DNA of 39,179 nucleotides from Deltaproteobacteria bacterium. Lineage in GTDB: Bacteria; Bdellovibrionota; UBA1018; UBA923. Position 1 is the first letter of the stretch; the number at the start of each line of letters is the position of its first letter. Positions 1,848-35,912 of this stretch are shown one piece after another. The notes beneath the pieces were generated by a model. That model saw only the letters and a list, made by a program, of their open reading frames with translations. It was not told the DNA's origin and made no database searches. The translations under genes and the position numbers were made by a program. The stretch is from NCBI GenBank assembly GCA_016194795.1, contig JACQAX010000029.1:1-39179 (forward strand), read 5' to 3'.

Positions 1848-2690
1848 ATGGGGATGAAAGCCAATCTCGACTTCAGCCCGGGGCTCGTTCCGAACGAGCA
1901 TCAGTTCAAGGACCCGTTCTTCCAGCGCTTCACGCTGCGAAACGCGCCGAAGCCGCTTCGGCTCTCGGAGACCGTCTCGAAGAACTACGTCTTTCCGACG
2001 ATGTATGCCGACGTGAGCTGCGCGATCGGCATCTTCAAGTGCAGCTTTGATGCCGCGCTGAAGCTGATGCCCGATCCGGCATTGAAGCCCGTGAGCATGC
2101 TCGGCGGCAAGTCGCTCGTGATCTTCTCGTGCTACGAGTACCGCACGGTCATGAACGTGGCGCCTTATAATGAGATCGCGATGACGATCCCGGTGCTCGC
2201 CGGCGGCTTGCGCCTTCCCGTGCTGCCGATGGTCCTGAGCGGCGCTTTCAGCAATTTCGGCTACTACGTCTTCTCGATGCCGGTGACGTCCAAAGAAAAC
2301 GAGCTGCGCGGACGCAACATCTGGGGCCTGCCCAAGGTCACGCAGGACATCGACATCACCGTGCGCGACGGCTACAGCACGACCGTCGCGCGCGACGAGC
2401 GCGGCGAGGCGTACTTCGAGCTGAACGTGCCGCTCAACGGCGGCTCGCAGAAGAGCTTCGACGTCACGGGCCGGCTCTACTCCAAGCTCGACGGCCGGCT
2501 CCTTCGCGCGCAGACGAACTTCAAGGGCGACTTCAACGTCGTCAAACGCGCCGAGCCCGGGCGCGAGTACCTCAAGATCGGAAACGGACCCGCCGCGGCG
2601 ACGCTTCGCTCGCTTGAGCTCGACAAGACGCCGTTCCAGCTTCGGCACACGCCGGGCATGAACGCGGCTTTTGACCTTCCAATAATGTAA
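1848..2690 (+). CDS. acetoacetate decarboxylase (ADC)-like family protein
   Basis: 280-aa ORF. Length and sequence pattern (YVFPTMYADVS...VIFSCYEYRTVMNVAPYNEIAMTIPV...) resemble the ADC beta-cone family. The call comes from recalled family features, not a search. Confidence 0.55.
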   Translation: MGMKANLDFSPGLVPNEHQFKDPFFQRFTLRNAPKPLRLSETVSKNYVFPTMYADVSCAIGIFKCSFDAALKLMPDPALKPVSMLGGKSLVIFSCYEYRTVMNVAPYNEIAMTIPVLAGGLRLPVLPMVLSGAFSNFGYYVFSMPVTSKENELRGRNIWGLPKVTQDIDITVRDGYSTTVARDERGEAYFELNVPLNGGSQKSFDVTGRLYSKLDGRLLRAQTNFKGDFNVVKRAEPGREYLKIGNGPAAATLRSLELDKTPFQLRHTPGMNAAFDLPIM

Positions 2691-2859
2691 CGATTTGTAA
2701 TCGCTTACATACTCCTGAAAATAAAAGACTAATTTCCAGCCACCGATTTTTACGACGGGCGGAAAAAGCCGCGTACAATCTTTTTTAACGCATCGAATCA
2801 AAACAGGCACACCGGCAGATTGGGGCCGGTCTTGTACGTCAGTACGGAGGGTGGCCGCC

Positions 2860-2958
2860 ATGATGCAGAATAGACTGAATCTCTTTAAAGCACTCCTGCG
2901 CGTGGTCGTTCCGGGTGCCATCGTTTTCCTGGCCGCGACGGCGGCCGAAGCGTTCGCG
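2860..2958 (+). other. Sec-type signal peptide of the giant RHS protein
   Basis: MMQNRLNLFKALLRVVVPGAIVFLAATAAEAFA|KD has a basic n-region, a hydrophobic core and an A-x-A (AFA) cleavage-type site. Confidence 0.7.
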
Positions 2959-5900
2959 AAAGATCGCTTCAACATCCAAATTTCTCCGTCGATCGCAAAC
3001 GGCGTCATCGAAGGCCAGAGCGAAACCTTCACGTTGAAGGAAGTTCTGGCGCGTGGCCCTTCGCCTAAGAACGAAGACGACGATAGCGACGACTCCGACG
3101 ACGACCGCCCGCCGAAAGGCCCTCGCTGGCTTGCCGAGTACGTTTGGAATGGCACGGTCGTCGGCACGCAGGGACCGCAGAGCCTCGCGGTGGGGCAGGG
3201 CTTTGATTTTACGTACTCGACGGCGCGCCTGCATCCGGCGAGCGCGGGCACGTCCAACACGTTTGTCGTCAACGTGTACAAGGTTCACGGAAAAAAGGAC
3301 AAGCGAAGCCTCAAGCAGACGAGCTCGTATACCGTCGCCGTCCAGCAAGACCAGGTTAAGCCGGTCTTCGCGTGCAGCTCGTTTCCGCTCTCGAACCCTT
3401 ACGTCCAGAGCGCTCCTCAGATTCAATGCACGCTCAGCGACTCGCTTGGTTATCTCGACACGATGGGCGCGGGCTCGATTCTCCTCGACGGCGTCGATGC
3501 CACTTCGAGATTTCAGATCACGCCGTCGGGTACCGGTGTCTGGGTATCGACCTATCTTATTACGGGTAACCTGAACCCCGTGCCTGAAGGCGCGCACGTC
3601 CTGACGCTGGCTCGTGGAGCCGACCTCGCCGGAAACCAGGCGGCGCCGATCTCTTTCGGTTTCACGATCGACCGTACCGCTCCGCTGCTCACGTTTGTCG
3701 GTGGAACGCACGATCACGTCCTGACGAACCAACGGAGCTTCGCCGTCAACGTCGCCGTGAATGACGCGAGCCCGACGATTACGACCATCCTGCTCAACGG
3801 CGCTTCGGTGTCGACGTCGCTGTCGGCGTTTCCCAGCGCGACCGTGACGCTCGCCGAGGGAGCCAACGTCGTCGAGGTTCAGAGCGTGGACAAGGCCGGC
3901 AATGCCGCCGCTCCGCTCCGCCTCACCGATCTGGTTCTGGATACACAGGCGCCGAGCCTGGCTTCGCTCGCGCCGACTTCGAATAGCGCGGTAACCGGTC
4001 CGACGTTTACGGTGTCGGGCACCGCGTCCGAGCCCCTGAGCTCGGCCATGCTGGGGACGTTCGCGCTCACCCTCAGCCCCGACAAGAAAAGTTTCTCGGG
4101 GCAGGTGACGGTTCCCGGCTCTGGCCCGTTTCAGGCGAGCCTGGCGCTGGTCGATCTCGCGGGCAACAGCTCGAGCTCGAGCGTCGCCTACAACGTCGTC
4201 GTCCCACCGCCGTTCGCGATTTCAGTCGATTCGCCGAAAAACGGCTCGACCTCGGGCACGCGCTCCATCGCGATCAGCGGTTCGGGCAATCGCCCACTTG
4301 CCGGAGCGACGGTGAACGGCCTGCCGCTTTCAATCGCCGGAAACTCTTTTTCGGGCACGTTCAATGCTCCGTCCGACGGGCCGTTGAGCCTGGCGATCGT
4401 CGCGAGCTCGTCCGACGGTGCGACGGCGAACGCGAACCTTTCGATTCAAGTCGTCTCGGCGTCTCCTTTGGCGCTGACGAACCTGTCGCCGGCCGACGGC
4501 GCGACGGTTCAGGGGCCCACCTTTCCCGTTTCAGGGCAGGCCAATCGCCGGCTCGCGTCGATCACGCTCAATGGCCAGCCGCTCACGATCGCGCCTGACG
4601 GCGTCTCGTTTAGCGGAAGTTTCACCGTCTCGACCGGCAGTACCGGTAGTACCGGTACGGACTCATGCCCGGTCAACTATTCGTGCGGCCCCTATGCCGG
4701 TGGTCCCGTATCCACGGGCTGCCAAGTGCTCAACGGTATCACGCTCGCTTGCCCGAACAACCCGAGTTGCGACCCGATCAGCGGAAAATGTTCCAACGCG
4801 AGCACCGGCACCTGCGATCCTTCGGTTCAGACCTGCGGGCCAACTTCGCTTGCCAACTGCACGGTCAACGCGAACTTCTACGTCTGCCCGATCGGAAACC
4901 CCGGCGTTCCGAGCAACCCAAGCCTGCTGCCGCTCACCTGCACGATGCAGGGCGCTTATGTTTATTGCGCGATTTCAGGTGGCCCGGTCGCGCCCTATCC
5001 CGGACCGGGCACGACCCTGGCTGATTGCAGCTTCGCGCCGAACTCGGTGCTTTGCACTCTCGACGCTTCAAGCGGCAGCGCAAGTGGCAGTGCAAGTGGG
5101 AGCGGCACCCCGACGCCGATCGTGCTCACCTGGTCCGCCGTCGACGTGAACGGTGGCTCGATCAACGTCGTCACGCACGCCAACGTCCTGCCCGCCGCCG
5201 GCGGGCCGACGTTCGATATCGCGGTCGACTCGCCACAGCCCAACGCAACGCTTACCTCGCTCACCATTCCGGTAAGTGGCCACGCGACGGCTCCGATCGG
5301 GACGATCAACCTCAACGGCCAGTCGCTCCAGCTCAGCGCCGACAAGATGAGCTTCAGCGGAACCTACACCGCTCCGGGCTTTGGCCCGCTGACCCTTTCA
5401 TTTTCGGCGACCGCGCTGGTCGGAGGCGCCGGCGCCGGCGTTGCGGTTCCGGTGACGATCAGTAATGGCGGCGGACCGGGAGGCCTCGCGATTTTCGTAA
5501 CCGCTCCTCAGCAGGGCGCGATCGTCAACAGTGGCCCGTTGACCGTGAGCGGTCACACCAATAACCCGGTCACCAAAGTGTTCGCCAACGGCGCGCCGAT
5601 GCAGCTCGACGGGACAGGAATGAGCTTCACGGGTTCGATCAACGTTCCGCCCACGTCAGGCCCGTTCAATATCCAGCTCCAGGCCACCGATGGCGTCAAC
5701 CAGGCGTTCGCCTCGATCACCGTTCAGGTCGGCTCGGGTGGCACGGGTGGTCCGCCGCTCAGCCTCGCCATTCTCAGCCCGTCGTCGGGCCAGCAGATTT
5801 CCGGCCTTGCCGTCACGATCAACGGGCAGGCAAACACCGTGCTTTCGAGCATCGCGGTCAACGGCCAGTCACTTACGATCGGCGCGGACGGGACGAGTTT

Positions 5901-8900
5901 CTCGGGCACCTACACGGCCCAGGCCCAAGGCAACCTCGCGCTGAACTTCCAGGGCCAGGCGACGAACGGGTCGTCGGCCCAGACGTCGGTCTCCGTGACC
6001 GTGGGCACCGGCATCGCCCTGATCGTCTCGGCGCCCACCGGCGGCGTGATCTCGACCCAGACTTTTCCGGTCAGCGGCACGACGAACGCGCCGATTTCCA
6101 GCATTACGGTGAACGGTCAGCCGATTCCGATCGGCGCCGACCGCGTAAGCTTCTCCGGAACGTACACGGCCGCAAGCAACGGCCCGCTGAGCTTGGATTT
6201 CGAGGCGCTGCTCACCAATGGCGTGTCGGCCTCCAAAACGGTTTCCGTCACCGTCGGCCCGCCGGTCGTACTCACCATCACGAGCCCGACGCCGAACCAG
6301 GCGTTCTCTTCGTTCAATGTCCCGGTGAGTGGTCGCTCAAGCGTGCCTCTTTCAATAATAACGGCCAACGGACTGCCGCTCACGCTGGGCCCGGATCAAA
6401 TGAGCTTTTCGGGGACGTATGTTGCTGGAGCCCCGGGCTCGCAGGGCATCCTCGTCAGTGCCATCTCCGTGGACGGAATCAAGGGGTCCGAGACCATACC
6501 GATCGTCATCAATGGGTCGGTCACGCCGTCGCTCGCGATCAAGATCACCGACCCGACGCCCGGTACGATCATTCGCCCGGGAACGACCTTCACGTTGGGC
6601 GGCACCACGACCGCTCCCGTCGTCAGCGTCACGGCCAATGGCCAGCCCCTTACGATTTCCGCCGATCAGCAGAGCTTCAGCGGACAACTCACCGCGCCTC
6701 TCACCGCCGGTGGCTTCCAGATCACCGTCGTCGCGCGGGACAGCTCGGGCCGTACCGCCACCACGCTCGCCAACCTCCAGGTCACGCAGCTGACGATTGC
6801 ATTCGCCGGGCCGAACGGCGGGCTTTCCGACGGCCTGGTGCTTTCGCCGGGCCCGCTGGCGATTCAAGGCAGCTCAAACTTTCCGCTCTCGCAGGCGACG
6901 GTCAACGGGCAGCCGCTTTCCGTCGGCGTCAACAACGTCGCGACGGCCTTCGCGGGCACGATCAACGTTCCTTCTTCGCCCATCACGTTTCCGCTCAACT
7001 TCAGCTTCACCGACACGTTCGGCGACACGCTGACGCAAACGCTTACGGTGTATGCCGTCTCGACGCCGGGGCCGACTCAAGACCTTCCGCTTCTGTCGCC
7101 CGCGGCTTCGACGAGCCACTCCGTGCAATCCTTCCTGGTGGCGGGACGAACAAACGTGGGCGTGACGGCGTTGTTGGTCGACGGCCAGCCTCTGAGCGTC
7201 GCTCGCGACGGGCAGAGCTTTCACGGGCTTTACACCACGTTCGCGCCGAACGGCGCGTTCACGGCGACGTTCGAGCTGATTCTCGGCTCCAACGCCTCCA
7301 TCCGAGTGCCCGTGAGCTACACGATGAGCGGGCTGGGGATCGCGTTGACGGGGCTTACGCCGCCGCCGGGAGCAAGCTTCCTGCCGCAGAGTTTCACGCT
7401 CTCGGGGCAGACGAACCAGGACGCAAAGACGGTTCAGGGCGATGCCTACGCGCTCGCGGTCTCGATTTCGGAATATCTCTCGCTTGTGGGTCCGGCTCCG
7501 GAGTCGCTGCTCCAGCCGCTCGTCTACCGGCGCGCCTTCAGCGGCTCCTACACGGCCCAGTCGGGGCAGATCACGACGAATATTCGGCTCACGGATTCCG
7601 ACGGCACGATCGTCACGGTGCCGATCAACTACTTCGTGGGCACGGGCCCGCTTAAGGCGAGCGGCGTCTCGTTCGCGTCACTTTATGACATCACCCCGAC
7701 GAATGGGTCGGCCGTGGCCAGCGGCCCGGTCATCATCCAGGGCAAGTCGACGGTTTCGCTAGCGTCGATTTCGGTGAACGGAATGCCGCTTTCGCTCGTC
7801 GGACACCAGGGTTTCTCCGGCGGAATCACGCTCACGTCCACGGTTGACGCGGGGACGAGCGTGTTCGCTCCCACAGGCGACCCGGCGGCTCAGGTGCTCG
7901 TCTTCCATGCGACGACCTCCAGTGGAGACAGCTTCGACCAGAGCGTCACCCTCGAGGTTCAAAATGCCCCGCCGCTCGCGTTCGCGAACCTTTTGCCGAA
8001 CGACCAGACTCCGATCGAGGATCTCGGCTCGCAGCCTATTTCGGGCTCGGCGAACATCCCGCTCGCGCGGCTGTCGGGCACGGTCGCCAACGGAGCAGGA
8101 ACCGGCGACTTGCCCCTCTTCCTGTCGCCCGATGGCCTCTTCTTCACGGGCAGCTTCGATCAGAACTCGGGCGCGGATGCGAACGTGTCGCTCTCGTTTG
8201 CCGCCACCGACATGTTCGGCCGCAATCTCCAGCGTTCCGTGACCGTCCCGCTCGACAAGACCCCGCCCGTGCTCGCGCTCCAACAGCCGGCGCCGGGTGC
8301 GTATCTCAACAGCCTCACGAACACGATCGCGGGCTCGTCGGATCGGCCGCTTGCCTCGGTGCTCGTCAACGGCACGGTGTTCCCGACGCTCGAGCAAAGG
8401 GCCTTCTCGCTTAGCTATGCGTCGGCGTCCGACGGACCGGTCTTGGTCGGGGCGACGAGCGTCACTGGCGGCGTACGGCCGCCCTCGTTGGCGTTCACCG
8501 TCGACACCACTCCGCCCGTGCTCGCCACGGTCACCCCGGGCGATGGCGCCTCGTTCGACGCCGTATTTCGAACCTTTCTCATCACCGGGCGCTTCGACGA
8601 GAACGTGGTCTCGGCGACCGTCAACGGCCTGGCGTGCTCGATCGGGGACGACGCGTTGTCGTTCAACGCGAACGCCACCGCGCTGACCGACGGGCCCCTC
8701 GATCTCCACTTCGTGTTCACCGATCGCGCGGGAAACGTCGCGCAAACCGACGTGAACGTCGTGGTCACGCAATCGGCCCTGAACGGAAATCTCGTGAGCG
8801 TGCAGCCGGTGCCGGGATCGACGAATCTGCGGATCGTCGGCGCTCCCGGCGCGGCCAAGGCCGGAAATACGGTGAACGCGAGCAGCGGAATCTTCACCTC

Positions 8901-11900
8901 CGGTTCGGCCGTCGCGGCCGATGACGGAAGCTTCGTGATCGCGCTTCCGCTATTTGCCCAGGCCGCGGTGTGGACGGTAAACCAGGTCTCGGGCCGAAAC
9001 GACTCGACGACGGTTTACTTCGGCGCGGGGGCCGGCACGAGACTGTCGGGTACCGTGAAGGACACGAGCGGCAACCCGCTCGCTGGCGTCACGGTGAGCC
9101 TTGCCGGTCGAAACGTGCAGGCGCTGACCGACTCGAATGGGGTCTTCAACTTCGTCGACCCGGCCACGGGAAACCAGACCCTGGTCGTCGACGGCGGCAC
9201 CGTGCCGCAGCCTTCGACGGGGCCCAATCGCGTTTTCTCGAAAACTTCGGTCGCGATCAACGTCGGCCTGGCGCAGGCCACCGTCATCAGCCGCCCGATC
9301 TTTCTCGCGCCGATCGTGATGGACGGCTCGCAGACGCCGGTCTCGGCGACGTCCGGCACCACGGTCACGAGCCCGGCCGCTCCTGACGTCTCGCTGACGA
9401 TTCCGGCGGGCGCGGCGACGTTCCCGAACGGCGCCACCTCGGGTGTCGTGTCGATGAGCACGATCTCGTCGCAGTTCTCGACGATCGAGCCCATGAAGTT
9501 CGCCGCCCCCAACAACGTGATCGCGCTCGAGCCTTCGGGCACGAAGTTCTCGGAAGACGTTCGCCTCACCGTGCCCAACGACAACCAGCTGCCGGAGGGA
9601 ACCGACGTCGTCATTCTCTCGATGAACTCGACCAAGGGCATCTGGGAAATCGGCGGCGCCGGCACCGTCGACAGCGGCGGCCGCACCATCACGACCAAGC
9701 CCAATATGGGCATTCGCCACTTCAGCGTGGTCTACGCGACGCCGATCGGCCCGAAGATCGGCCAGATCGGCGCGCAAGACCGCCCGGGAGCCGACACGTT
9801 CAATGGCGCTCTTACGACCGGCATCACGCTTCCGAGCTACAAGTCGCTCGGCCAGAGCATCGCGCCGTCGCTCGTCTACAAGAGCAGCTGGGCTCGCCCC
9901 ACGGCGATGTTCACCAACATGATCGACGTGCCGAGAAGCGACATCACGCTGGACTTCACGCAGGTGCTCGCTTCGCAGGAGCACGCCTATAACGTGACCG
10001 ACCACGAAACCGCGCATGGCTGGATCGAACCCGACTTCATCACGGCGCAGTTCCTGACTACCGGCCTGACGAGCGACGTGGCCACGATGACGGGTCTGCC
10101 CAATCAGGCGACGGTCAGCTACGCGCTCGAGCTCGCGCCGCCGGCCGGTTCCACGCCGGTGCCGGCCGCGGGCGGCTACCTCGCGAGCGACTCCTACCCG
10201 TATCTCTCGCACTGGGAGCTGCACCTCAAGCAGATGGTGCTGCGCACGAGAGAGGTCGTGCTCTGGCGCGCCGACACCGGCGCCCAAAGCATCATCCGGC
10301 AGGACAGCTGGGGCGAGACGCGCCAGCTCGAGAAAGTTTTCCCGTCCGACTTCCAGGGGCTGCTCTACGTCCAGAACCAGACGCAGTCGAGCGCGGGGCG
10401 CGGCTGGCGCGTGGGTGGCATGCAACGCATCGTCAACACCTCCAACGTGCGGGCGATGGTCGAGGAGGCCGATGGCTCGCTTACGGGCTATTCGCAGAAC
10501 AACACGATCACGACGCTCTTCAACGCCGACGGCACCGGCGTCGATCTGAACAGCGGCACCGACTTCACGGCTTATCCCTATGCCACCGTTGAAACCGGAG
10601 TGACCGTCGCGCAGACCGACCTCACCGCCGGGACCAACGCCATTTCGAGCATCGCCACGCTTGCCCGGCGCTTCAGCGCCCGCGTGCTGGGCTGGGCCTG
10701 CTTTGATTCGACCTTCAACGGCAACGTCCTGTGCTGGTCGGGCGGACACTCCTTCGACGTCGACCGCACGCTCTCGCACATGCTCAGGCTTCCGGACGGA
10801 CGGGTGTTCGCCGTCGACTCGCGCGGCAGCCAGGTCTTGCTGATCAACACCGACGGTACGCAGACGATTTTCGCCGGCACCGATCGCTTGCCGCACACGT
10901 ACTATTCCACGCCGAGCTCGCTTTGGGACAACAGCACCAACGTGACGCACACGAGCTGCGCCAACGCGGTCCAGGTTCCGTGGGTGAACTGGTCGGGCCA
11001 GCAGTTCGTCGTGCCCCCGACCTCGAACACGGTGGCCGCCGACACGTTCACCGACGCCGACAACCTCGCCGACCTTCGCCAAAAGATCGACCTGGGCACG
11101 TTCACTTTGGATAACCTTTCGGGCGCGCAGAGCAGACCCGACGGCTCGTATCCGGACTCGGGCTTTCAGGTCGGCCCGTCGAACACCGATTCGATGGGCG
11201 CGTATCGGCAGTGCTCGAGCGGTGTTCTTCCGGATCGCGGCTTCTCGGGCGACGGCGGCGCGCCCTCGCTCGCGCGCCTGAACAATCCGCTGAGCGTGGC
11301 GCCGGGGCTTGGCACCTCGATCCTGATCGTCGACACGGGCAATAACCGCGTGCGCCAGGCCGATCTCGTCAACAACGTGATCACGACCATCGCCGGTAAC
11401 GGCACGAGCTTCGACAACGGCGACGGCGGCCAAGCCCTCCAGGCCGGTCTTTTTCACCCACGCGCCGCGGCCTACGACGTTCAGGGCAACCTCTATATCT
11501 CGACCGAGAACGGCTACATCCGCAAGGTCGACCAGGCTGGCGTGATCTCGACCTTCGCCGGTCTGCCCCAGTCGCTCGGCGGAACGTTCGGCGAAGGTCT
11601 GCCGGCAACCCAGATCATCCTGCAGCGGCCCACGGGCCTTGCCGTCGACAACGTCAACGGCTACCTCTACGTCGCCGACACCGGCTCGGACGTCATCCGC
11701 CGCATCGACTTCCTGACGCAAAGAGCGGTGACAGTCGCCGGCAACTTCACGCCGGGCTACTCGGGCGACAACGGGGCGGCTCTCAACGCCTCGCTCTCGA
11801 GCCCGCTGTGGATCGGCCTTGATCCGAATCAGAACTTGCTCATCGCCGACACGGGCAACCAGCGCATCAGGAAAGTGACGTTCCAGACGCCGGGCGCTGG

Positions 11901-14900
11901 TGGGCAGGTGGTCTACGCCCCGAACGCGCCGACCGACCACAGCACTCTTGCGAGAAACGGCGATGGCTCGTGGGTGCGCACCTATCGAAACGGCACCACG
12001 GTGCTCTTCGACGTGAAGGGCCACCAGATCGGGTCGCAGGACCGCGTGGGTAGAGCCACGGCCTATCAGTACGACAGCGACGGCAACATGACTGCGTTCA
12101 CCGATCCGGTGGGGCGCACGACGACGTACTCGTATTCGGGTGGCTTGCTGGGGTCGATCACCGATCCGGCCGGAAGGACGACGCAGTTCACTTATGCGAA
12201 CGGGCTGCTGACTTCGGTCGTCTTCCCGGACGGGACACAACGCCAGTACGGTTATGACGGTAAAGCTTTGTTGAATGCCGAAACCGACGAGCGCGGTTTT
12301 ACGACGCATTATGTTTACAATGACTTCAACCGCCTGACGGCGGTTACGAAGGCTGACGGATCGACGGTGACTGTGAACGACTCGGCTTCGGCTACGGCCA
12401 TGAACTCGTTTGCGGTTGGGCCGAGTGGTGGGACGCTTAAGACCTTTGGCGTCGACAGCGGCCAAATCTACGACGGCATCAGGGACGCGAGAAGTTTTGA
12501 GACAAAATTCTTAAAAGACACTTCGGGCTACATCACAACGATCGTCGATGCAAACGGGCAGACGACGACGGTAGATCGAAATGCCAAAGGTCAGCCTACG
12601 TTGATCACTCGCCCTGACGGCACAACGGTGTCATTCACGTACGATCCCGCGACAGACGATCTTATTGCTCAGTCTGACTCGGCTTTGAACGTGTCGACGA
12701 GCCAGACTTACGATGCCTTTGGAAACATTCTTACCCAAACCGACGGGCGAGGTTTCACGTCCGCAACGACTTACGACCCTGCGACAGGCCTCGTCCTTTC
12801 CAAAAGCGATCCCCTGGGGCATGGGCCAAGCTATCAGTACAACCAACTTGGGCTTCCCACGATAATGAGCAACGCTCTCGGAAAGTCGACGACTACGCGC
12901 TACGACGCTTTCGGAAACGTGAGCTCGATCACTGACCCGCTAAATCATACAACGAGCTATGTACGAGATCTCGCTGGGTATACGATTTCGATGACTAATG
13001 CCAAGAATCAGACGACGCAGTATCAACACGATTCATTCAATCGTCTGAGTTCGGTCACGAATCCGAAAAACGAAACCACAAGCTACATCTATCTCGCAAG
13101 TGGTCAACTTTCGCAGATCAGCGACCCTCTCGGTGGAGTTACGAGTTTTCAGTACGACGTTCTTGGCCGGCTGAGCTCAAAAACAGATCCGCTTGGCATG
13201 ACTACGAGCAGGGGATACGACGCCAACGACAACGTGGTTCAGGAAAATGATCCTAACAGCAACGTGAAGACGTACGTCTACGATAACCTGAATCGACTCA
13301 TTCAGAAGACGCTTCCCGATAACGTAATCACGATGAGCTACGACATTCGCGGAAACATGCTCCAAGCCGCGAACCAGCAAGGCGCCATAGGCTTCGGCTA
13401 TGATGTCGGCGGAAGGTTGACCTCGACCACGACCTCGGGGTCGGGATTGCCGACTGCGACGTTGGCCTTCCAATACGATGCCAATGGCAATCGTCTCAGC
13501 ATGACCGACCCGGTTGGCGTGACGAGCTACAGCTACGATCAGGCCAGCCGCCTCACGAGCCTTACCAATCCTAAAAACGAGAACTTCATGTTCGGGTTTG
13601 ATGCGGCCAATCGACCGACTTTGATTATTAGGCCCGGAAGTAGTACGGCCCTCGCGTTTGACGATGCGAATTTCTTGACGTCGATCGTGCACTCGAATTC
13701 CAGTGGAACGCTTGCATCTTACGGCTATGTGATGGATGCGATCGGAAACCGGACTGCGGTGACGACGCAGGCTGGGACTCAGAACTTCGACTACGACAAT
13801 AACAGCCAGCTTACGAGTGCTAGTAACCCTGAAGCCGCCGCTTTGAATGCAAACGAGACGTTTACGTATGACTCGGTCGCTAATCGAAAAAGCGATCAGA
13901 ACGGCGCGTACAACTATGACGGGAAAAATCAGCGCCTGACCGAGGACTACGGCTATACGTATACCTACGACAATAATGGAAACCTGATCGCGAAGTCCCA
14001 AAAGGGGCTAAACGGTGGGACGACGAACTTTTATTATTCGTCTGAAAACCAGCTCCTGAGCTTCAAAGTCTACGACCCGACATTCAGCTCAAGCCAGCCG
14101 ATCAAGGAAGTGACTTACAGCTACGACGCAATCGGTAGGCGCGTTTCCAAGCAAGTCGTTGATCATTCTGCTGAGACTGACGTCACCAAGACCTTCGGGC
14201 GCCGCTACGTCTATGACGGCCAGGAGATTCTTCTTGAGTATGATGCGGGCAACAATCTGCTCGCGCGTTACACGCACTCGGGTCTTCAAAGCGACGACGT
14301 GCTTACCGTCGACGTGAGGTCCGCCGGTGTATCCGTGGGCCTTGCCCAAAATACACAGACGTACACCTACCTGAAAGATGCGCAGGGATCAGTGCGCGAC
14401 GTTGTCGATACATCCGGAAATAAAATTCAGCACTACATCTATACTGCGTTTGGCGTGCTCCTTGGAATCCAAGACGCAAATGCCGCAGATGTGACGACAA
14501 GTCCTCCGGTTCGGACGAGTTATACATTCACGGGACGGGAGCTCGATAGCGAGAGCGGAAATTACCACTATCGCGCGCGCGTGTATGATCCGCGTACTGG
14601 GCGCTTCATCCAAAAGGACCCTAGCCCTGGAGTTTTGAAACTCCCAATAACTTCGAGCAATACATACATTTATAGCGCCAATAGCCCGACGAACTTTAAG
14701 GACCCGTCGGGAAGAAATTTCATCGGTTCCGCTATCGGGAATATCTCGCATGCGCTTCTTGAAACAATTGCAGGGCCCTTAGGCGGAGTTTTCGGTGCGG
14801 CTGGCTGGCATGCTTTTCAGGGTGGCACAATTTGGAAGGACTTCCTCGCAGCTGCCGCCGTAACTCTGATTGGCATAGCCATCGCAGCGGCACTACCGGC

Positions 14901-15246
14901 GGAAGCAGTAGGAATTGGGACTTTCATCGCGGTTGGCGCTCTCGTAGGCGCCGTATCGGGAGCGCTTTCTGCGTGGATTACAGGGCAGAAACTTCCTGGC
15001 ATCTTGTTAGGCGCAGGGCTGGGTGCTTTGGCTGGGGCAATTGGCGCAGTGATTGGTCACCCGGAAAGTGGCCTTACGGTCGTTCAGAAAGTAATCGGGA
15101 ACGCCGCTGTCGGCGCCCTGCTCTCACCGCCCGATATCCTCCCGGAAAAGGAGCAGGAGGATCTCGATCGTTGTTTTCTGCCTGGACCAGCTCCCATGCA
15201 GGATCCAAATGACCATTTAGATTTCCCCGCTGCATCATACCTGTAA
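2860..15246 (+). CDS. giant secreted RHS/YD-repeat polymorphic toxin (Ig-like repeat stalk, Cys-rich insert, CarboxypepD_reg-like, NHL, YD shell, RHS core, Gly-zipper C-terminal toxin domain)
   Basis: Single uninterrupted ORF 2851..15246 (4131 codons in the track, which starts at GTG 2851). GGAGG at 2846-2850 lies 9 nt before ATG 2860, so 2860 is the preferred start. Domain motifs read directly from the translation are listed in the sub-features below. Confidence 0.95.
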   Translation: MMQNRLNLFKALLRVVVPGAIVFLAATAAEAFAKDRFNIQISPSIANGVIEGQSETFTLKEVLARGPSPKNEDDDSDDSDDDRPPKGPRWLAEYVWNGTVVGTQGPQSLAVGQGFDFTYSTARLHPASAGTSNTFVVNVYKVHGKKDKRSLKQTSSYTVAVQQDQVKPVFACSSFPLSNPYVQSAPQIQCTLSDSLGYLDTMGAGSILLDGVDATSRFQITPSGTGVWVSTYLITGNLNPVPEGAHVLTLARGADLAGNQAAPISFGFTIDRTAPLLTFVGGTHDHVLTNQRSFAVNVAVNDASPTITTILLNGASVSTSLSAFPSATVTLAEGANVVEVQSVDKAGNAAAPLRLTDLVLDTQAPSLASLAPTSNSAVTGPTFTVSGTASEPLSSAMLGTFALTLSPDKKSFSGQVTVPGSGPFQASLALVDLAGNSSSSSVAYNVVVPPPFAISVDSPKNGSTSGTRSIAISGSGNRPLAGATVNGLPLSIAGNSFSGTFNAPSDGPLSLAIVASSSDGATANANLSIQVVSASPLALTNLSPADGATVQGPTFPVSGQANRRLASITLNGQPLTIAPDGVSFSGSFTVSTGSTGSTGTDSCPVNYSCGPYAGGPVSTGCQVLNGITLACPNNPSCDPISGKCSNASTGTCDPSVQTCGPTSLANCTVNANFYVCPIGNPGVPSNPSLLPLTCTMQGAYVYCAISGGPVAPYPGPGTTLADCSFAPNSVLCTLDASSGSASGSASGSGTPTPIVLTWSAVDVNGGSINVVTHANVLPAAGGPTFDIAVDSPQPNATLTSLTIPVSGHATAPIGTINLNGQSLQLSADKMSFSGTYTAPGFGPLTLSFSATALVGGAGAGVAVPVTISNGGGPGGLAIFVTAPQQGAIVNSGPLTVSGHTNNPVTKVFANGAPMQLDGTGMSFTGSINVPPTSGPFNIQLQATDGVNQAFASITVQVGSGGTGGPPLSLAILSPSSGQQISGLAVTINGQANTVLSSIAVNGQSLTIGADGTSFSGTYTAQAQGNLALNFQGQATNGSSAQTSVSVTVGTGIALIVSAPTGGVISTQTFPVSGTTNAPISSITVNGQPIPIGADRVSFSGTYTAASNGPLSLDFEALLTNGVSASKTVSVTVGPPVVLTITSPTPNQAFSSFNVPVSGRSSVPLSIITANGLPLTLGPDQMSFSGTYVAGAPGSQGILVSAISVDGIKGSETIPIVINGSVTPSLAIKITDPTPGTIIRPGTTFTLGGTTTAPVVSVTANGQPLTISADQQSFSGQLTAPLTAGGFQITVVARDSSGRTATTLANLQVTQLTIAFAGPNGGLSDGLVLSPGPLAIQGSSNFPLSQATVNGQPLSVGVNNVATAFAGTINVPSSPITFPLNFSFTDTFGDTLTQTLTVYAVSTPGPTQDLPLLSPAASTSHSVQSFLVAGRTNVGVTALLVDGQPLSVARDGQSFHGLYTTFAPNGAFTATFELILGSNASIRVPVSYTMSGLGIALTGLTPPPGASFLPQSFTLSGQTNQDAKTVQGDAYALAVSISEYLSLVGPAPESLLQPLVYRRAFSGSYTAQSGQITTNIRLTDSDGTIVTVPINYFVGTGPLKASGVSFASLYDITPTNGSAVASGPVIIQGKSTVSLASISVNGMPLSLVGHQGFSGGITLTSTVDAGTSVFAPTGDPAAQVLVFHATTSSGDSFDQSVTLEVQNAPPLAFANLLPNDQTPIEDLGSQPISGSANIPLARLSGTVANGAGTGDLPLFLSPDGLFFTGSFDQNSGADANVSLSFAATDMFGRNLQRSVTVPLDKTPPVLALQQPAPGAYLNSLTNTIAGSSDRPLASVLVNGTVFPTLEQRAFSLSYASASDGPVLVGATSVTGGVRPPSLAFTVDTTPPVLATVTPGDGASFDAVFRTFLITGRFDENVVSATVNGLACSIGDDALSFNANATALTDGPLDLHFVFTDRAGNVAQTDVNVVVTQSALNGNLVSVQPVPGSTNLRIVGAPGAAKAGNTVNASSGIFTSGSAVAADDGSFVIALPLFAQAAVWTVNQVSGRNDSTTVYFGAGAGTRLSGTVKDTSGNPLAGVTVSLAGRNVQALTDSNGVFNFVDPATGNQTLVVDGGTVPQPSTGPNRVFSKTSVAINVGLAQATVISRPIFLAPIVMDGSQTPVSATSGTTVTSPAAPDVSLTIPAGAATFPNGATSGVVSMSTISSQFSTIEPMKFAAPNNVIALEPSGTKFSEDVRLTVPNDNQLPEGTDVVILSMNSTKGIWEIGGAGTVDSGGRTITTKPNMGIRHFSVVYATPIGPKIGQIGAQDRPGADTFNGALTTGITLPSYKSLGQSIAPSLVYKSSWARPTAMFTNMIDVPRSDITLDFTQVLASQEHAYNVTDHETAHGWIEPDFITAQFLTTGLTSDVATMTGLPNQATVSYALELAPPAGSTPVPAAGGYLASDSYPYLSHWELHLKQMVLRTREVVLWRADTGAQSIIRQDSWGETRQLEKVFPSDFQGLLYVQNQTQSSAGRGWRVGGMQRIVNTSNVRAMVEEADGSLTGYSQNNTITTLFNADGTGVDLNSGTDFTAYPYATVETGVTVAQTDLTAGTNAISSIATLARRFSARVLGWACFDSTFNGNVLCWSGGHSFDVDRTLSHMLRLPDGRVFAVDSRGSQVLLINTDGTQTIFAGTDRLPHTYYSTPSSLWDNSTNVTHTSCANAVQVPWVNWSGQQFVVPPTSNTVAADTFTDADNLADLRQKIDLGTFTLDNLSGAQSRPDGSYPDSGFQVGPSNTDSMGAYRQCSSGVLPDRGFSGDGGAPSLARLNNPLSVAPGLGTSILIVDTGNNRVRQADLVNNVITTIAGNGTSFDNGDGGQALQAGLFHPRAAAYDVQGNLYISTENGYIRKVDQAGVISTFAGLPQSLGGTFGEGLPATQIILQRPTGLAVDNVNGYLYVADTGSDVIRRIDFLTQRAVTVAGNFTPGYSGDNGAALNASLSSPLWIGLDPNQNLLIADTGNQRIRKVTFQTPGAGGQVVYAPNAPTDHSTLARNGDGSWVRTYRNGTTVLFDVKGHQIGSQDRVGRATAYQYDSDGNMTAFTDPVGRTTTYSYSGGLLGSITDPAGRTTQFTYANGLLTSVVFPDGTQRQYGYDGKALLNAETDERGFTTHYVYNDFNRLTAVTKADGSTVTVNDSASATAMNSFAVGPSGGTLKTFGVDSGQIYDGIRDARSFETKFLKDTSGYITTIVDANGQTTTVDRNAKGQPTLITRPDGTTVSFTYDPATDDLIAQSDSALNVSTSQTYDAFGNILTQTDGRGFTSATTYDPATGLVLSKSDPLGHGPSYQYNQLGLPTIMSNALGKSTTTRYDAFGNVSSITDPLNHTTSYVRDLAGYTISMTNAKNQTTQYQHDSFNRLSSVTNPKNETTSYIYLASGQLSQISDPLGGVTSFQYDVLGRLSSKTDPLGMTTSRGYDANDNVVQENDPNSNVKTYVYDNLNRLIQKTLPDNVITMSYDIRGNMLQAANQQGAIGFGYDVGGRLTSTTTSGSGLPTATLAFQYDANGNRLSMTDPVGVTSYSYDQASRLTSLTNPKNENFMFGFDAANRPTLIIRPGSSTALAFDDANFLTSIVHSNSSGTLASYGYVMDAIGNRTAVTTQAGTQNFDYDNNSQLTSASNPEAAALNANETFTYDSVANRKSDQNGAYNYDGKNQRLTEDYGYTYTYDNNGNLIAKSQKGLNGGTTNFYYSSENQLLSFKVYDPTFSSSQPIKEVTYSYDAIGRRVSKQVVDHSAETDVTKTFGRRYVYDGQEILLEYDAGNNLLARYTHSGLQSDDVLTVDVRSAGVSVGLAQNTQTYTYLKDAQGSVRDVVDTSGNKIQHYIYTAFGVLLGIQDANAADVTTSPPVRTSYTFTGRELDSESGNYHYRARVYDPRTGRFIQKDPSPGVLKLPITSSNTYIYSANSPTNFKDPSGRNFIGSAIGNISHALLETIAGPLGGVFGAAGWHAFQGGTIWKDFLAAAAVTLIGIAIAAALPAEAVGIGTFIAVGALVGAVSGALSAWITGQKLPGILLGAGLGALAGAIGAVIGHPESGLTVVQKVIGNAAVGALLSPPDILPEKEQEDLDRCFLPGPAPMQDPNDHLDFPAASYL
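3664..8950 (+). repeat. protein-level tandem array of about 16 Ig-like (bacterial Ig/cadherin-like) modules
   Basis: A ~90-100 aa unit recurs, ending in NG(Q/L)PL(T/S)I..D..SFSG(T/S)(Y/F)TA. Examples: KMSFSGTYTA, GTSFSGTYTA, RVSFSGTYTA, QMSFSGTYVA, QQSFSGQLTA, GVSFSGSFTV. Module boundaries look like DRTAPLLTF, DTQAPSLASL, DKTPPVLAL and DTTPPVLATV. The DNA copies are diverged, so this is not a nucleotide tandem repeat. Boundaries are approximate. Confidence 0.75.
4665..5055 (+). other. Cys-rich insert within the Ig array, followed by an SGSASGSASGSG linker
   Basis: 14 Cys in about 130 aa (SCPVNYSCGPY...GCQVLNGITLACPNNPSCDPISGKCSNASTGTCDPSVQTCGP...CTLD). The rest of the 4,100-aa protein contains only a handful of Cys. 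Confidence 0.8.
9034..9200 (+). other. carboxypeptidase-regulatory-like (transthyretin-like fold) domain
   Basis: RLSGTVKDTSGNPLAGVTVSLAGRNVQALTDSNGVFNFVDPATGNQTLVVDGG fits the CarboxypepD_reg pattern G.V.D..G.P..G..V.......TD..G.F. Confidence 0.75.
11268..11883 (+). repeat. NHL-type beta-propeller blades (at least 4 visible)
   Basis: Blade-like repeats: LNNPLSVAPGLGTSILIVDTGNNRVRQADL; LFHPRAAAYDVQGNLYISTENGYIRKVD; LQRPTGLAVDNVNGYLYVADTGSDVIRRIDF; LSSPLWIGLDPNQNLLIADTGNQRIRKVTF. Confidence 0.75.
12061..14100 (+). repeat. YD/RHS repeat shell (more than 25 YD motifs)
   Basis: Repeated xYxYDxxGNxxxxxD units, e.g. YQYDSDGNMTAFTD, QTYDAFGNILTQTD, TRYDAFGNVSSITD, FQYDVLGRLSSKTD, FQYDANGNRLSMTD, YSYDQASRLTSLTN. 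Confidence 0.9.
14107..14715 (+). other. RHS repeat-associated core ending in a cleavage-type motif
   Basis: RYVYDGQEILLEY...YTYLKDAQGSVRDVVD...YTFTGRELDSESGNYHYRARVYDPRTGRFIQKDP...YIYSANSPTNFKDPSGR. This matches the canonical RHS core end (YHYRARYYDPxxGRFxxxDP ... PxxxxDPxG(L)). The DPSGR motif is at 14701..14715. Confidence 0.85.
14716..15243 (+). other. variable C-terminal toxin domain: Gly/Ala-zipper hydrophobic, predicted membrane-inserting
   Basis: 176 aa follow DPSGR. They contain GPLGGVFGAAGW, LIGIAIAAALPAEAVGIGTFIAVGALVGAVSGALSAWITG, GILLGAGLGALAGAIGAVIG and VIGNAAVGALL, which are stacked GxxxG/AxxxG zippers, followed by an acidic/Pro tail. I saw no nuclease, deaminase or ADP-ribosyltransferase catalytic motif. 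Confidence 0.6.
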
Positions 15247-15268
15247 GATTTGATAGGATTGAGTTCAT

Positions 15269-15844
15269 ATGGAGATTCGAGACTTCAAAGTCGGCTTCGC
15301 GCGGGTCGTGTCATTACGAGGAAGTCTCGCCTATGTTGGTATCGTGTGGCTTAAGATTCAGCTGCTTTTCAACGGGATAATGCTTTTCGTTTTGGTCAAC
15401 AGTTTGGCGAATGACATGATCTCTATCCGAAGCCCACGCATTCCTATAGGTTTCGCTCTTTATGTCTTGGCTTTGACGCTGATTTTTTCGCCATTTCTTT
15501 ACAGGCGGATATACAGGTACGCGTTCTATTGGTTCCGGTTTGGGGAGAACGGTCTGGATCTTTATGAGGACAAAGACTGTAAGCGTCTTTGTCAAAATAT
15601 CCCTTACGACCGAATCAATTCATTCTATCACGTTAAGCCGAATTTCATTTGGAGCGATAGTCTGCTTCCGAAATCTACCCATGCAGACTGGGAGCAGACA
15701 TTTATACGCTACGATACGGCTGGAAATTTTAGTTCTGTCGCGAGTCTGGACCTTGGTCCGAAGACCCCTGCTGACGTTTCCAGCTTGGTAGCTCAGTTTC
15801 GAAGTCGATGTCCCAAGATAGCCATTCGACCGGGTAACGGCTAG
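15269..15844 (+). CDS. candidate cognate immunity protein (small membrane protein, 2 N-terminal TM helices plus soluble tail)
   Basis: 191-aa ORF starting 22 nt after the toxin stop, same strand. It shares the low G+C of the toxin 3' end. Hydrophobic segments: LAYVGIVWLKIQLLFNGIMLFVLVNSLA and IPIGFALYVLALTLIFSPFLY. I recognise no family. Confidence 0.6.
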   Translation: MEIRDFKVGFARVVSLRGSLAYVGIVWLKIQLLFNGIMLFVLVNSLANDMISIRSPRIPIGFALYVLALTLIFSPFLYRRIYRYAFYWFRFGENGLDLYEDKDCKRLCQNIPYDRINSFYHVKPNFIWSDSLLPKSTHADWEQTFIRYDTAGNFSSVASLDLGPKTPADVSSLVAQFRSRCPKIAIRPGNG

Positions 15845-15916
15845 AGCCGCCGCTCGGGCGTTGGAGCGGGAGCAAAGACACTCAAGTTCGCCCGCGGTAT
15901 AGTTTTGATTCGGTTT

Positions 15917-22610: not shown

Positions 22611-22639
22611 TTGACTATAACTATCAACAATACTAGAAT
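22611..22639 (+). promoter_or_regulatory. sigma70-type promoter for the lipoprotein-OmpA operon
   Basis: TTGACT (22611-22616), a 17-nt spacer, then TAGAAT (22634-22639), in an AT-rich intergenic island. It is followed by AGGAG (22657-22661) and ATG 22668. Confidence 0.6.
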
Positions 22640-22667
22640 AGTGCTTAGTTTTAAGCAGGAGCCCAAT

Positions 22668-23738
22668 ATGCGCTGTTCCAAGTTGATGGTTGCTCTCTCG
22701 TTCTCGGTCGTGCTCACGACAGGCTGTGGTCAGGGACCCGCCCTCACCAAAGAAGCCGGACAGGCTGCGGCAACAAGCCAGTCGCCCGCTCAGGCCAGCA
22801 AGGGCGCGGGCCCCGGGCTCGAAAAGTCGGACGCGAAGGATACGAAGCTCGAAAACAACGATCCCAAGCCTACCGATCCCAAGCCCACCGATCCCAAACC
22901 CGCCGAAGTGAAGCCAGCCGAAACGGCTCCGAAGGTCGTCGAAACCAAGCCCCAGCCGCCGGTTGCCCCGGTCGTCGTGGTCGTCGCCGCCGAGAAGGGC
23001 GCCAACGGCACCAACGGCATCGACGGCGCCAACGGCATCAGCGGCTGCAAGACGAACTCGGCCGAGTCGCAGACCTTCCCGGCCGAGCGCATGGTTTCCA
23101 AGGATCGCAAGAAGTGGGCGGCCCCGCTTCGCGACACGAAGGTTCGCGCGATCCCGCGCCTGAGCCTGGGCGATACCTCCAAGCCCAATGTCCAGTACGT
23201 GCTCGACTCGATGGTCTTCTTCGGCTTCCACGTGAAGCTGCCGGCGCTGAAGTACGTGCGCGTGAAGAAGGCGCTGCTCACGCTCGAGCTCACGAAGATC
23301 ATGGCCGACTGTTATCCCTGGACGGAGTGGATCTCGCTCCTCGACGAGAAGATCTCGTCGGGCGTGCGCTACGAGGCGTCCAACTATCTCGCCAACAACA
23401 ACCCGAAGTATCCTGAGATGTCGAACGACGCCTTCTCCGAGATCATCCGCGACATCGTCGCCCCGGAGTCGCGCCACGACGACAAGACCAAGCCGTGGTG
23501 CAAGCCCAAGACGCATGACGTCTACCCGGCGACCGTGACCATCACGCTCGACGACATCCTGCGCGGAAGCAAGTACGGCACCGCGCACGAATACCTCTAT
23601 CGCAAAGCCGCGCAGAGCGAGCCCCTGGAGCTTGCGATCCCGATCGCCGTCGGTGACGACTCCCGCGTCACAACGGCCAGCCTGACGATCGAATGGGAAG
23701 AAGACACGTGTGCAAGCGGTAAAGGAGCACAAAAATGA
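22668..23738 (+). CDS. hypothetical lipoprotein with Pro-rich PTDPK tandem and GANGTNGIDGANGISG segment
   Basis: MRCSKLMVALSFSVVLTTGCGQGP has a signal sequence plus lipobox. AGGAG lies 6 nt upstream of ATG 22668. The track start at 22611 sits inside the promoter and is rejected. The stop overlaps the next ATG (ATGA). Confidence 0.75.
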   Translation: MRCSKLMVALSFSVVLTTGCGQGPALTKEAGQAAATSQSPAQASKGAGPGLEKSDAKDTKLENNDPKPTDPKPTDPKPAEVKPAETAPKVVETKPQPPVAPVVVVVAAEKGANGTNGIDGANGISGCKTNSAESQTFPAERMVSKDRKKWAAPLRDTKVRAIPRLSLGDTSKPNVQYVLDSMVFFGFHVKLPALKYVRVKKALLTLELTKIMADCYPWTEWISLLDEKISSGVRYEASNYLANNNPKYPEMSNDAFSEIIRDIVAPESRHDDKTKPWCKPKTHDVYPATVTITLDDILRGSKYGTAHEYLYRKAAQSEPLELAIPIAVGDDSRVTTASLTIEWEEDTCASGKGAQK

Positions 23739-35804: not shown

Positions 35805-35912
35805 CTTCAAGAACACCCGCAGAAACACCGCGAGAAACACGCCGAAGAACAGAAGGAGCGCGAGACTCGTGAGCCAGGTCTGGGGAAAATGGACGAGCGC
35901 CTGCGTTTTCAT
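35805..35912 (-). CDS. ccoQ: CcoQ-like single-TM segment (frame differs from ccoP; no nearby stop in its own frame)
   Basis: ATG 35912 overlaps the ccoNO stop (ATGA). [36 protein letters not shown] resembles CcoQ/FixQ. Beyond about 35805 this frame reads an R/S/T-rich string with no stop until 35556. Confidence 0.5.

Follow-up and report, generated by a model that had tools for sequence, protein, structure and literature searches.

A giant, probable teneurin-like protein with a 17-module Ig-like stalk from a 'Deltaproteobacteria bacterium' genome

Animal teneurins are thought to derive from bacterial teneurin-like toxins. YD shells closed by an FN-plug, together with an NHL propeller, were reported to be widespread in bacteria by Jackson et al. 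2018 (PMC5851990), including a Bacillus subtilis protein composed of Ig domains, a transthyretin-like (TTR) domain, an unknown domain of about 180 amino acids (aa), a teneurin-like core, an RHS core whose cleavage site is conserved, and a C-terminus that varies. The name teneurin-like proteins (TLPs) was coined by Raoelijaona et al. 2026 for proteins of 139 genomes in six phyla, with the order adhesion modules, TTR, TIP, FN-plug, NHL, YD shell, and C-terminal domain (CTD) (PMC13018210). Here, a giant gene at positions 2860-15246 of contig JACQAX010000029.1 (39,179 bp, analysed over its whole length and referred to as the window) from a metagenome-assembled genome (MAG) labelled 'Deltaproteobacteria bacterium' was compared with these systems, and its product is very probably a bacterial TLP, i.e. 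a Sec-exported polymorphic toxin carrier (in the following, the giant TLP).

In the 2026 survey, TIP was present in 96% of the TLPs, and the TLP of Bacillus inaquosorum (BiTLP), with a cryo-electron microscopy structure at 2.1 Å, was autocleaved at the RHS core and between G723 and S724 (PMC13018210). Several of the TLP CTDs, of about 15 kDa, were toxic in E. coli, and an immunity gene was located directly downstream of almost all TLP genes; a role of TLPs in cell-cell communication was left open by the authors (PMC13018210).

The reading frame of the giant TLP gene is open on the plus strand (the strand of all features described below unless otherwise indicated) from 2851 (GTG) or 2860 (ATG) to 15246, comprising 4,131 codons, and translation from the ATG, which is preceded by GGAGGG, results in a protein of 4,128 aa. 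The identical NCBI entry, MBI3541862.1, is annotated as 'carboxypeptidase-like regulatory domain-containing protein'. In order from the N-terminus, the protein contains a signal peptide, a conserved N-terminal region, 17 Ig-like modules, TTR, TIP, FN-plug, NHL, YD shell, RHS core, and an orphan CTD of 176 aa. The initial annotation, made from the DNA letters, had listed a Sec signal, an Ig array with a Cys-rich insert, TTR, NHL, YD shell, an RHS core with a cleavage motif, and a variable tip within this single ORF, and all of these were recovered by Pfam and NCBIfam searches, a self-built hidden Markov model (HMM), and reading of the sequence.

Teneurin-like core and C-terminal cargo

The TTR domain (aa 2055-2140, 9022-9279) matched CarboxypepD_reg in Pfam (PF13620, 6.7e-9 at aa 2062-2111) and PF13715 (3e-8). 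The NHL beta-propeller (aa ~2571-3010, 10570-11889), with a low-confidence loop insert at aa ~2689-2779, matched TEN_NHL (PF25021, 1.7e-16, 60.6 bits against a cutoff of 27.1 bits) and NHL (6.4e-8) in Pfam, and the NHL of BiTLP in phmmer (domain E-values of 2e-22 and 4.5e-41), and a blade-like strand pattern was seen in the AlphaFold2 (AF2) model. The YD (RHS-repeat) shell of ~850 aa (aa 3011-3860, 11890-14439), identified by Pfam, NCBIfam and PDB matches, gave RHS_repeat at 3.7e-73 in 11 stretches, YD_repeat_2x at 3.6e-49, and RHS_core at 3.5e-51. Of the HMM families named with the initial annotation, CarboxypepD_reg, NHL, and RHS_repeat were thereby found at significant E-values, as was the RHS-core family TIGR03696 described below. 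On searching aa 2041-3960 against all PDB sequences (phmmer), the 'Teneurin-like protein' entries 9ifo/9pt5 were at the top (E 1e-63), followed by type VI secretion system (T6SS) Rhs proteins at 1e-43 and below, and by teneurins at ~1e-17.

A TLP was also the top match at the level of the fold. The superfold was modelled with AF2 over aa 2290-3489 (1,200 aa, covering part of the shell) using 28 relatives, with a pLDDT of 82.4 and a pTM of 0.74. In Foldseek searches of the PDB, BiTLP (9ifo_A) ranked first with an E-value of 3e-52 over 1,226 columns, and twelve teneurin entries were next (1e-43 to 1e-35, 1,300-1,560 columns), with thirteen teneurin entries in all, interspersed with Rhs and Tc hits, down to 2e-18, whereas T6SS Rhs proteins (~1e-32) aligned over only 520-790 columns, in the shell alone, and TcB-TcC scored ~1e-18. 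A second AF2 model, covering TTR and TIP (aa 2055-2330), had a pLDDT of 86.9, with both domains above 90, and its TTR matched the TTR domains of carboxypeptidases D and N with a root-mean-square deviation (rmsd) of 1.9-2.5 Å, and teneurin entries at E-values of 7e-5 to 1e-3. The structural comparison that had been suggested together with the initial annotation thus gave, for the superfold model, BiTLP as the best fold match, followed by teneurins, T6SS Rhs, and Tc proteins. Directly before TTR, family alignments delimited a conserved beta module (aa 1972-2054, 8773-9021) with the consensus 'LNxxLxSxxP...GAxGAxRPG...GFFN...DGSF'.

The FN-plug (aa ~2290-2570, 9727-10569, with approximate boundaries) appeared in the model as long beta hairpins, and may be assigned at the fold level, as the whole model aligned to BiTLP and teneurins, whereas the plug-less T6SS Rhs proteins aligned over the shell. 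A clade profile of TTR, TIP, and FN-plug returned no match to BiTLP at E≤1, and hhalign aligned only the TTR domain, with a BiTLP sequence transcribed from the supplement of the 2026 paper that contains optical character recognition errors; the assignments of both TIP and FN-plug therefore rest on the fold search, on their position, and on the HFS motif. On these grounds, the stretch of about 650 aa to which no domain had been assigned in the initial annotation can now be divided into a putative TIP (aa ~2141-2289), the FN-plug, and the first NHL blades with their loop insert.

The RHS-associated core (aa 3861-3952, 14440-14715) matched TIGR03696 with an E-value of 8e-17 at aa 3861-3951, and carries an aspartyl autoprotease motif of the PxxxxDPxG type, PTNFKDPSGR, which is followed by N. 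Arg3907, Asp3920 (in KDPSPG) and Asp3948 (in PTNFKDPSGR) line up by eye with the catalytic residues R2103, D2116 and D2140 of BiTLP. BiTLP is cleaved after L2144 (PMC13018210), and cleavage of the giant TLP core is predicted after Arg3952.

The polymorphic CTD (aa 3953-4128, 14716-15243; 176 aa, 17.4 kDa) is a predicted membrane toxin on the basis of hydropathy and GxxxG counts. Three hydrophobic 19-mers, Gly/Ala-rich and glycine-zipper-like, were found in it, with 34% Gly+Ala and 15 small-xxx-small-xxx-small motifs, and no homologue was returned from Pfam, NCBIfam, PDB, or a word-index protein search. In the clade of relatives, 61 of 67 CTDs were Gly/Ala-rich with at least one hydrophobic, TM-like segment, and 42 of 67 had at least two segments, with a median CTD length of 176 aa. 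The clade CTDs (P0029-P0132) had no detectable similarity to that of the giant TLP, and the eight tails inspected look mutually unrelated. The cargo of the clade seems to be of one physicochemical type and hypervariable in sequence. From its composition we infer that the CTD is a glycine-zipper, multi-helix hydrophobic peptide acting on membranes. The CTD of BiTLP is likewise hydrophobic and, if directed to the periplasm of E. coli, permeabilises the cells (PMC13018210). Tse5 is an Rhs cocoon with an encapsulated pore-forming CTD, and ionophores of contact-dependent inhibition (CDI) are a further precedent (PMC11630599).

The candidate immunity gene (15269-15844) starts 22 nt after the toxin stop codon on the same strand, and encodes 191 aa with two transmembrane (TM)-like segments at aa ~23-46 and ~56-78; no family was found for this ORF. 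A multi-TM ORF is located at the equivalent position in a relative from Bacteriovoracaceae (L002). In line with the published properties of the family, the two-TM product is the predicted immunity protein. At the corresponding position of another relative, from Bdellovibrio sp. (L001, described below), there are two small lipoprotein-like ORFs (16100-16447 and 16449-16778).

The G+C content at third codon positions (GC3) was 0.86-0.91 over aa 2100-3000, similar to that of the flanking host genes (0.86-0.88), whereas the YD shell had values of 0.57-0.70, the CTD 0.51, and the immunity ORF 0.52, before a return to 0.87 in the next gene. The break was at ~12.0-12.3 kb (aa ~3050), i.e. close to where NHL and YD shell meet and away from the core/CTD junction, so that the low-GC3 stretch covers ~12000-15850. 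From this compositional evidence, shell, toxin, and immunity gene may have been acquired jointly, as a cassette from a lower-GC donor. A coarse nearest-neighbour comparison gave no clear incongruence, as aa 2055-3000 and aa 3150-3950 share the best relative, P0030, with identities of 44% and 62%, respectively.

According to what is published for the family, the giant TLP would be exported by Sec and displayed on the surface of the producer by its Ig stalk, with the CTD enclosed in the YD shell behind the FN-plug. The RHS-core aspartyl protease would cut after DPSGR and free the 17-kDa CTD inside the shell, and the downstream two-TM protein would confer immunity. Judging from its composition, the CTD may insert into the target membrane and permeabilise or depolarise it, like the CTDs of BiTLP and Tse5. 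A different function, which we regard as unlikely, would be mainly that of an adhesin or cell-cell recognition receptor, for example in prey attachment or social behaviour; the superfold would then act as a platform for interactions, as it does in animals, and the peptide at the C-terminus would not be a toxin. A very long Ig stalk is characteristic of giant adhesins, the CTD is not homologous to known toxins, and the authors of the 2026 work kept a role of TLPs in cell-cell communication open; however, the cleavage residues of the RHS core, which are lost in metazoan teneurins (PMC13018210), are intact here, several TLP CTDs are toxic in E. coli, and directly downstream there is a co-oriented gene for a small membrane protein that shares the foreign GC3 of the CTD, which is the signature of a toxin-immunity cassette.

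Comparison with described systems

With BiTLP (WP_088111228.1; PDB 9ifo, 9pt5) and the TLP of Methylosarcina fibrata (PMC13018210, PMC5851990), the giant TLP shares, in the same order, Ig-type adhesion modules, TTR, TIP, FN-plug, NHL, YD shell, an RHS core in which a DPxG-type motif is found, and a CTD that is short and polymorphic, with a small gene following downstream. BiTLP was its top match in both sequence and fold, the HFS motif is common to the two, and the CTD is hydrophobic in both. BiTLP is, however, much shorter (2,237 aa in comparison to 4,128 aa), with ~400 aa before TTR instead of ~2,050 (~700 in most clade members), and the giant TLP has 17 modules of one Ig type and a unique Cys-rich insert. 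The Asp pair of the core motif is separated by 24 residues in BiTLP and by 28 in the giant TLP, and the CTD is of 92 and 176 aa, respectively; in addition, the giant TLP is devoid of an equivalent of the C719-C2216 disulfide and apparently of a conserved Ser at the S724 position. The giant TLP comes from a 'Deltaproteobacteria bacterium' MAG and its named relatives are from Bdellovibrionota, a phylum outside the six of the 2026 paper, and no Bdellovibrionota taxon was found in that paper or its supplements (PMC13018210).

Resemblance to metazoan teneurins (chicken Ten2 6FB3, human Ten4 7BAM, fly Ten-m 8FIA) consists of the TEN_NHL match and of Foldseek E-values of 1e-43 to 2e-18 over 1,300-1,560 columns. 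In contrast to these, the giant TLP has a cleavable signal at its N-terminus and no TM or intracellular part, EGF repeats, ABD, or Tox-GHH (no such Pfam matches), and it contains TIP, which most animal teneurins lack. Given its intact core motif, cleavage and enclosure of the CTD are expected, not threading to the outside, and its Cys-rich insert does not adjoin TTR.

T6SS Rhs proteins, especially Tse5 of Pseudomonas aeruginosa (8cp6), have a YD cocoon and an RHS-core aspartyl autoprotease in common with the giant TLP, and Tse5 encapsulates a pore-forming, membrane-depolarising CTD. TcB-TcC complexes (TcdB2-TccC3 4O9X, YenB/YenC2 4IGL) similarly have a YD shell, to which a beta-propeller is attached, around a toxic C-terminus that is released by autoproteolysis. 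With these homologies of shell and RHS core, and with 39 kb of the genome visible, the protein could be conceived as a conventional T6SS-delivered Rhs effector, or as the BC part of a Tc toxin needing a TcA encoded elsewhere. We consider this very unlikely. A Sec signal forms the N-terminus where a PAAR or VgrG-binding region would be needed, no PAAR, VgrG, or DUF family was matched, and in place of the N-terminal plug of Rhs proteins there are TTR, TIP, FN-plug, and NHL. The giant TLP is a single chain with no SpvB, TcdB, or other TcB-type domain (Pfam/NCBIfam), and the flanking genes are of the housekeeping type. Moreover, by fold and by sequence the TLP and teneurin matches were clearly ahead of those to T6SS Rhs and Tc proteins, and the Rhs matches were restricted to the shell.

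CdiA proteins with ionophore CTDs are comparable in their long surface-displayed stalk, polymorphic C-terminal toxin, and membrane-embedded immunity (PMC11630599), whereas the cargo of the giant TLP is held in a YD shell. Identity as CdiA was rejected, as the two-partner secretion (TPS) domain, FHA repeats, VENN motif, and CdiB gene were absent from the Pfam and NCBIfam results. The distinction from T6SS-Rhs, CdiA, and Tc toxins drawn in the initial annotation was thus borne out: PAAR, VgrG, SpvB, and TPS domains were missing, and no T6SS, Tc (including TcA-like), or two-partner-secretion genes were found within the 39-kb window. A distinct new delivery device, which had also been proposed, is not what was found, because the architecture was already described in 2018 (PMC5851990) and characterised in 2026 (PMC13018210), an outcome that the proposal itself had named as speaking against it.

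Ig-like stalk and relatives of the giant TLP

The signal peptide (aa 1-33, 2860-2958; MMQNRLNLFKALLRVVVPGAIVFLAATAAEAFA, followed by KD) was read by eye from the sequence as of the signal-peptidase-I type with no lipobox Cys, since it ends in AFA before KD and the first Cys of the protein is residue 172. A similar hydrophobic N-terminus with no lipobox was present in 50 of 79 full-length relatives, and a lipobox in 15 of 79. The following N-terminal region (aa 34-266, 2959-3657) is common to family members of ordinary length, matching P0053, P0029, P0062, and others at their residues ~240-460 (phmmer, 8e-20 to 1e-15), together with a weak Pfam match to Big_3_3. Within this region, an acidic run, DDDSDDSDDD (aa 75-84, 3082-3111), could be a cation-binding or anchoring element.

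The Ig-like stalk (aa 267-1971, 3658-8772) comprises 17 modules of ~90 aa, detected by an iterated self-built HMM with per-module E-values of 1e-10 to 1e-30, and matching Glucodextran_B (1.2e-29) and Big_13 in Pfam. At an estimated ~4 nm per Ig domain, the stalk would be ~70-80 nm long. The modules were mutually 14-48% identical, and no long-period DNA tandem repeat was found in the stalk by Tandem Repeats Finder, which indicates that the array is old and diverged, and neither recently amplified nor produced by the assembly. Module 4 is interrupted by a Cys-rich insert of 130 aa with 14 Cys (aa 603-732, 4666-5055), followed by the linker SGSASGSASGSG, encoded by a 12-bp repeat in three copies (5069-5104), the sole tandem repeat in the stalk. 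The insert is ~1,300 aa upstream of TTR and occurred in no other teneurin-like representative searched, and is consequently not a counterpart of the teneurin Cys-rich region. Of the teneurin-like order claimed in the initial annotation, the succession TTR, plug, NHL, and YD shell is retained, and the parallel in the Cys-rich-to-TTR arrangement is coincidental.

Distribution of the family was surveyed by exhaustive HMMER against 1.84 billion representatives, with aa 2055-2790 as the query. This resulted in 120 clusters at E<1e-30, of which ~100 keep TTR, TIP, FN-plug, NHL, YD shell, core, and CTD (seven query segments mapped), so that this architecture is a common one. The length of most clade members was 2,600-3,000 aa, TTR being located near residue 700, and giant relatives were of 3,522, 3,675, 3,920, 4,277 (Halobacteriovorax sp.), 4,424 (Bdellovibrio sp., L001), 4,892, 5,508, and 5,576 aa; the named relatives of the giant TLP are Bdellovibrionota MAGs. 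Copies of the module type of the giant TLP numbered 1-3 in 109 of 117 relatives, with 12 and 8 as the next highest after the 17-18 of the giant TLP. The length of the stalk, emphasised in the initial annotation, is hence uncommon but not unique.

The Bdellovibrio sp. protein of 4,424 aa (L001 2813-16087, MAG JACPIU010000048) has a stalk which by eye consists of RCC1-like repeats, PKD-like domains, and other Ig types. As its stalk is built from different modules, long stalks have apparently arisen more than once.

It is most improbable that the giant ORF is an assembly artefact, i.e. a chimeric contig or mis-assembled repeats inflating the stalk, for although the contig is metagenome-assembled and GC3 changes abruptly inside the gene, the diverged modules offer no DNA-level repeat to mis-assemble, the low-GC3 segment has host-level GC3 on both sides so that a chimera would need two junctions, the frame is intact across every domain boundary, and independent MAGs carry relatives of 4,277-5,576 aa.

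The TIP domain, flanking genes, and implications

The TIP domain of ~150 aa (aa 2141-2289, 9280-9726) ends in GIRHFS and was read as ZU5-like. In Pfam, ZU5 was matched with E-values of 0.0016-0.0023 and 18.6-19.1 bits, under the gathering cutoff of 21 bits, and among 15 relatives five matched ZU5, with a best E-value of 3.7e-5. When a profile of TIP alone (34 sequences) was compared to the PDB at E≤10, seven of the nine matches, including the five best, were ZU5 domains, i.e. ankyrin-2 (1.3e-3), ankyrin-3, ZO-1, and ankyrin-1, with E-values ranging from 1.3e-3 to 1.8 and the match centred on the LEPSG-x-F-x-x-PV-x-L-x-PN core. The TTR-TIP model aligned in Foldseek with the ankyrin ZU5 domain 3kbu_C over 159 columns (E 9.6e-3, TMt 0.55).

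The terminal HFS (aa 2287-2289, 9718-9726) is a candidate autoproteolysis site, with the cut between Phe and Ser. Alignments of 15, 29, and 34 relatives showed no variation of the motif, and 100 of ~106 representatives contained it; BiTLP carries it as PITHFS, and it also occurs in other TLPs of the alignment in the 2026 paper (PMC13018210). The L001 protein has HYS in place of HFS. In PIDD and Nup98, autocleavage takes place at an HFS motif, which forms the C-terminal end of ZU5-like domains (PMC3210808), and for RHS toxins with propellers, N-terminal ZU5 autopeptidases were already reported by Zhang et al. 2012; there is no mention of ZU5 or HFS in the 2026 TLP paper (PMC13018210). With the autoprocessing ZU5 domains (PIDD, Nup98, UNC5CL, FIIND of NLRP1/CARD8, and the RHS-toxin ZU5 of Zhang et al. 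2012), TIP appears to share a beta-sandwich of ~150 aa, the LEPSG-x-F-x-x-PV-x-L-x-PN core, and the C-terminal HFS, and differs from them in scoring under the Pfam gathering threshold and in that its cleavage is only predicted.

On this basis, a tentative hypothesis, somewhat doubtful in our own estimate, is that the TIP of TLPs is a ZU5-type autoprotease cutting its near-invariant HFS (Phe2288/Ser2289 in the giant TLP), and that this is the operative N-terminal cleavage in the clade. It would yield a long Ig stalk with a detachable cocoon of ~200 kDa that carries a glycine-zipper membrane toxin and is held non-covalently on the stalk or releasable from it. The mapped N-terminal cut of BiTLP, G723/S724, is 39 residues downstream of its HFS, and by-eye alignment on a shared 'GAL' motif, which is tentative, places S724 at Thr2313 of the giant TLP, in a position that is variable within the clade. 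As the G/S site of BiTLP is apparently not conserved in the clade, cleavage at HFS would be the operative one.

Several observations weigh against the interpretation as a cleaved, surface-displayed TLP with a toxic cargo. The N-terminal cut of BiTLP was mapped at G723/S724 and not at HFS, no cleavage at HFS is reported for any TLP, and the residue that would correspond to S724 according to the motif alignment is Thr and varies in the clade. TIP and FN-plug of the clade are devoid of a sequence-level match to BiTLP, and the C719-C2216 disulfide has no counterpart, with no Cys between aa 1926 and 2614. Foldseek TM-scores of the model against BiTLP were low (0.40/0.35, rmsd 18 Å), for a model that covers part of the shell. 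The CTD has no detectable homologue, its proposed activity being derived from composition, and no lipobox or other recognisable anchor for surface attachment is present in the giant TLP.

Many shorter proteins (~900-1,900 aa) among the representatives P0149-P0173 matched TTR and the first part of TIP with E-values of ~1e-22 to 1e-26. If these are devoid of NHL and YD shell, the TTR-ZU5-like pair is also present in other surface proteins, as was noted for ZU5 by Zhang et al. 2012.

The giant TLP gene is flanked by housekeeping genes for the DbpA helicase, an acetoacetate-decarboxylase-like protein, an SNF2 helicase, YaeQ, a LigB-type dioxygenase, and a nitroreductase, and genes for an OmpA-family protein, a patatin, a PAS histidine kinase, FixG, and cbb3 oxidase are located farther along the contig. 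No promoter or terminator signal exceeding the background was detected in scans of the surroundings of the gene, and a look-up of contigs encoding the immunity ORF or the full-length giant TLP returned no record. On the minus strand (35909-38080), a single ORF of 723 aa contains both COX1 (CcoN-like, 1.7e-119) and FixO (CcoO, 6.9e-85), apparently a fused N-O subunit of cbb3 oxidase, and a FixG-like ferredoxin gene is at 33862-35226. An ORF of 375 aa (22611-23738) with no family match contains the proline-rich repeat PKPTDPKPTDPKP, and its 3′-end overlaps the start of the OmpA-family gene (23735-25063); the two may encode an envelope protein pair.

Altogether, the giant TLP is not a new class or device; what is new is the length of the stalk, a large clade associated with Bdellovibrionota, the interpretation of TIP in terms of ZU5 and HFS, the bias of the CTDs towards glycine zippers, and the GC3 break. 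It extends the range of the family to at least 100 clusters, many of them from Bdellovibrionota-type MAGs, outside the isolate-based survey of 2026, and it shows to what extent the stalk can be lengthened, since 17-18 modules are present here and relatives reach up to 5,576 aa. In view of the GC3 break, an exchange of shell, toxin, and immunity gene as one cassette may be possible. Two testable ideas on the release of the cocoon and its cargo are offered, namely ZU5/HFS autoprocessing and a strong bias of the clade to glycine-zipper membrane toxins with membrane immunity proteins. If the former is true, the cut at HFS would supply the release step that the 2026 paper calls still missing for TLPs, and the stalk, with 17 modules in the giant TLP, would set the reach of the device.

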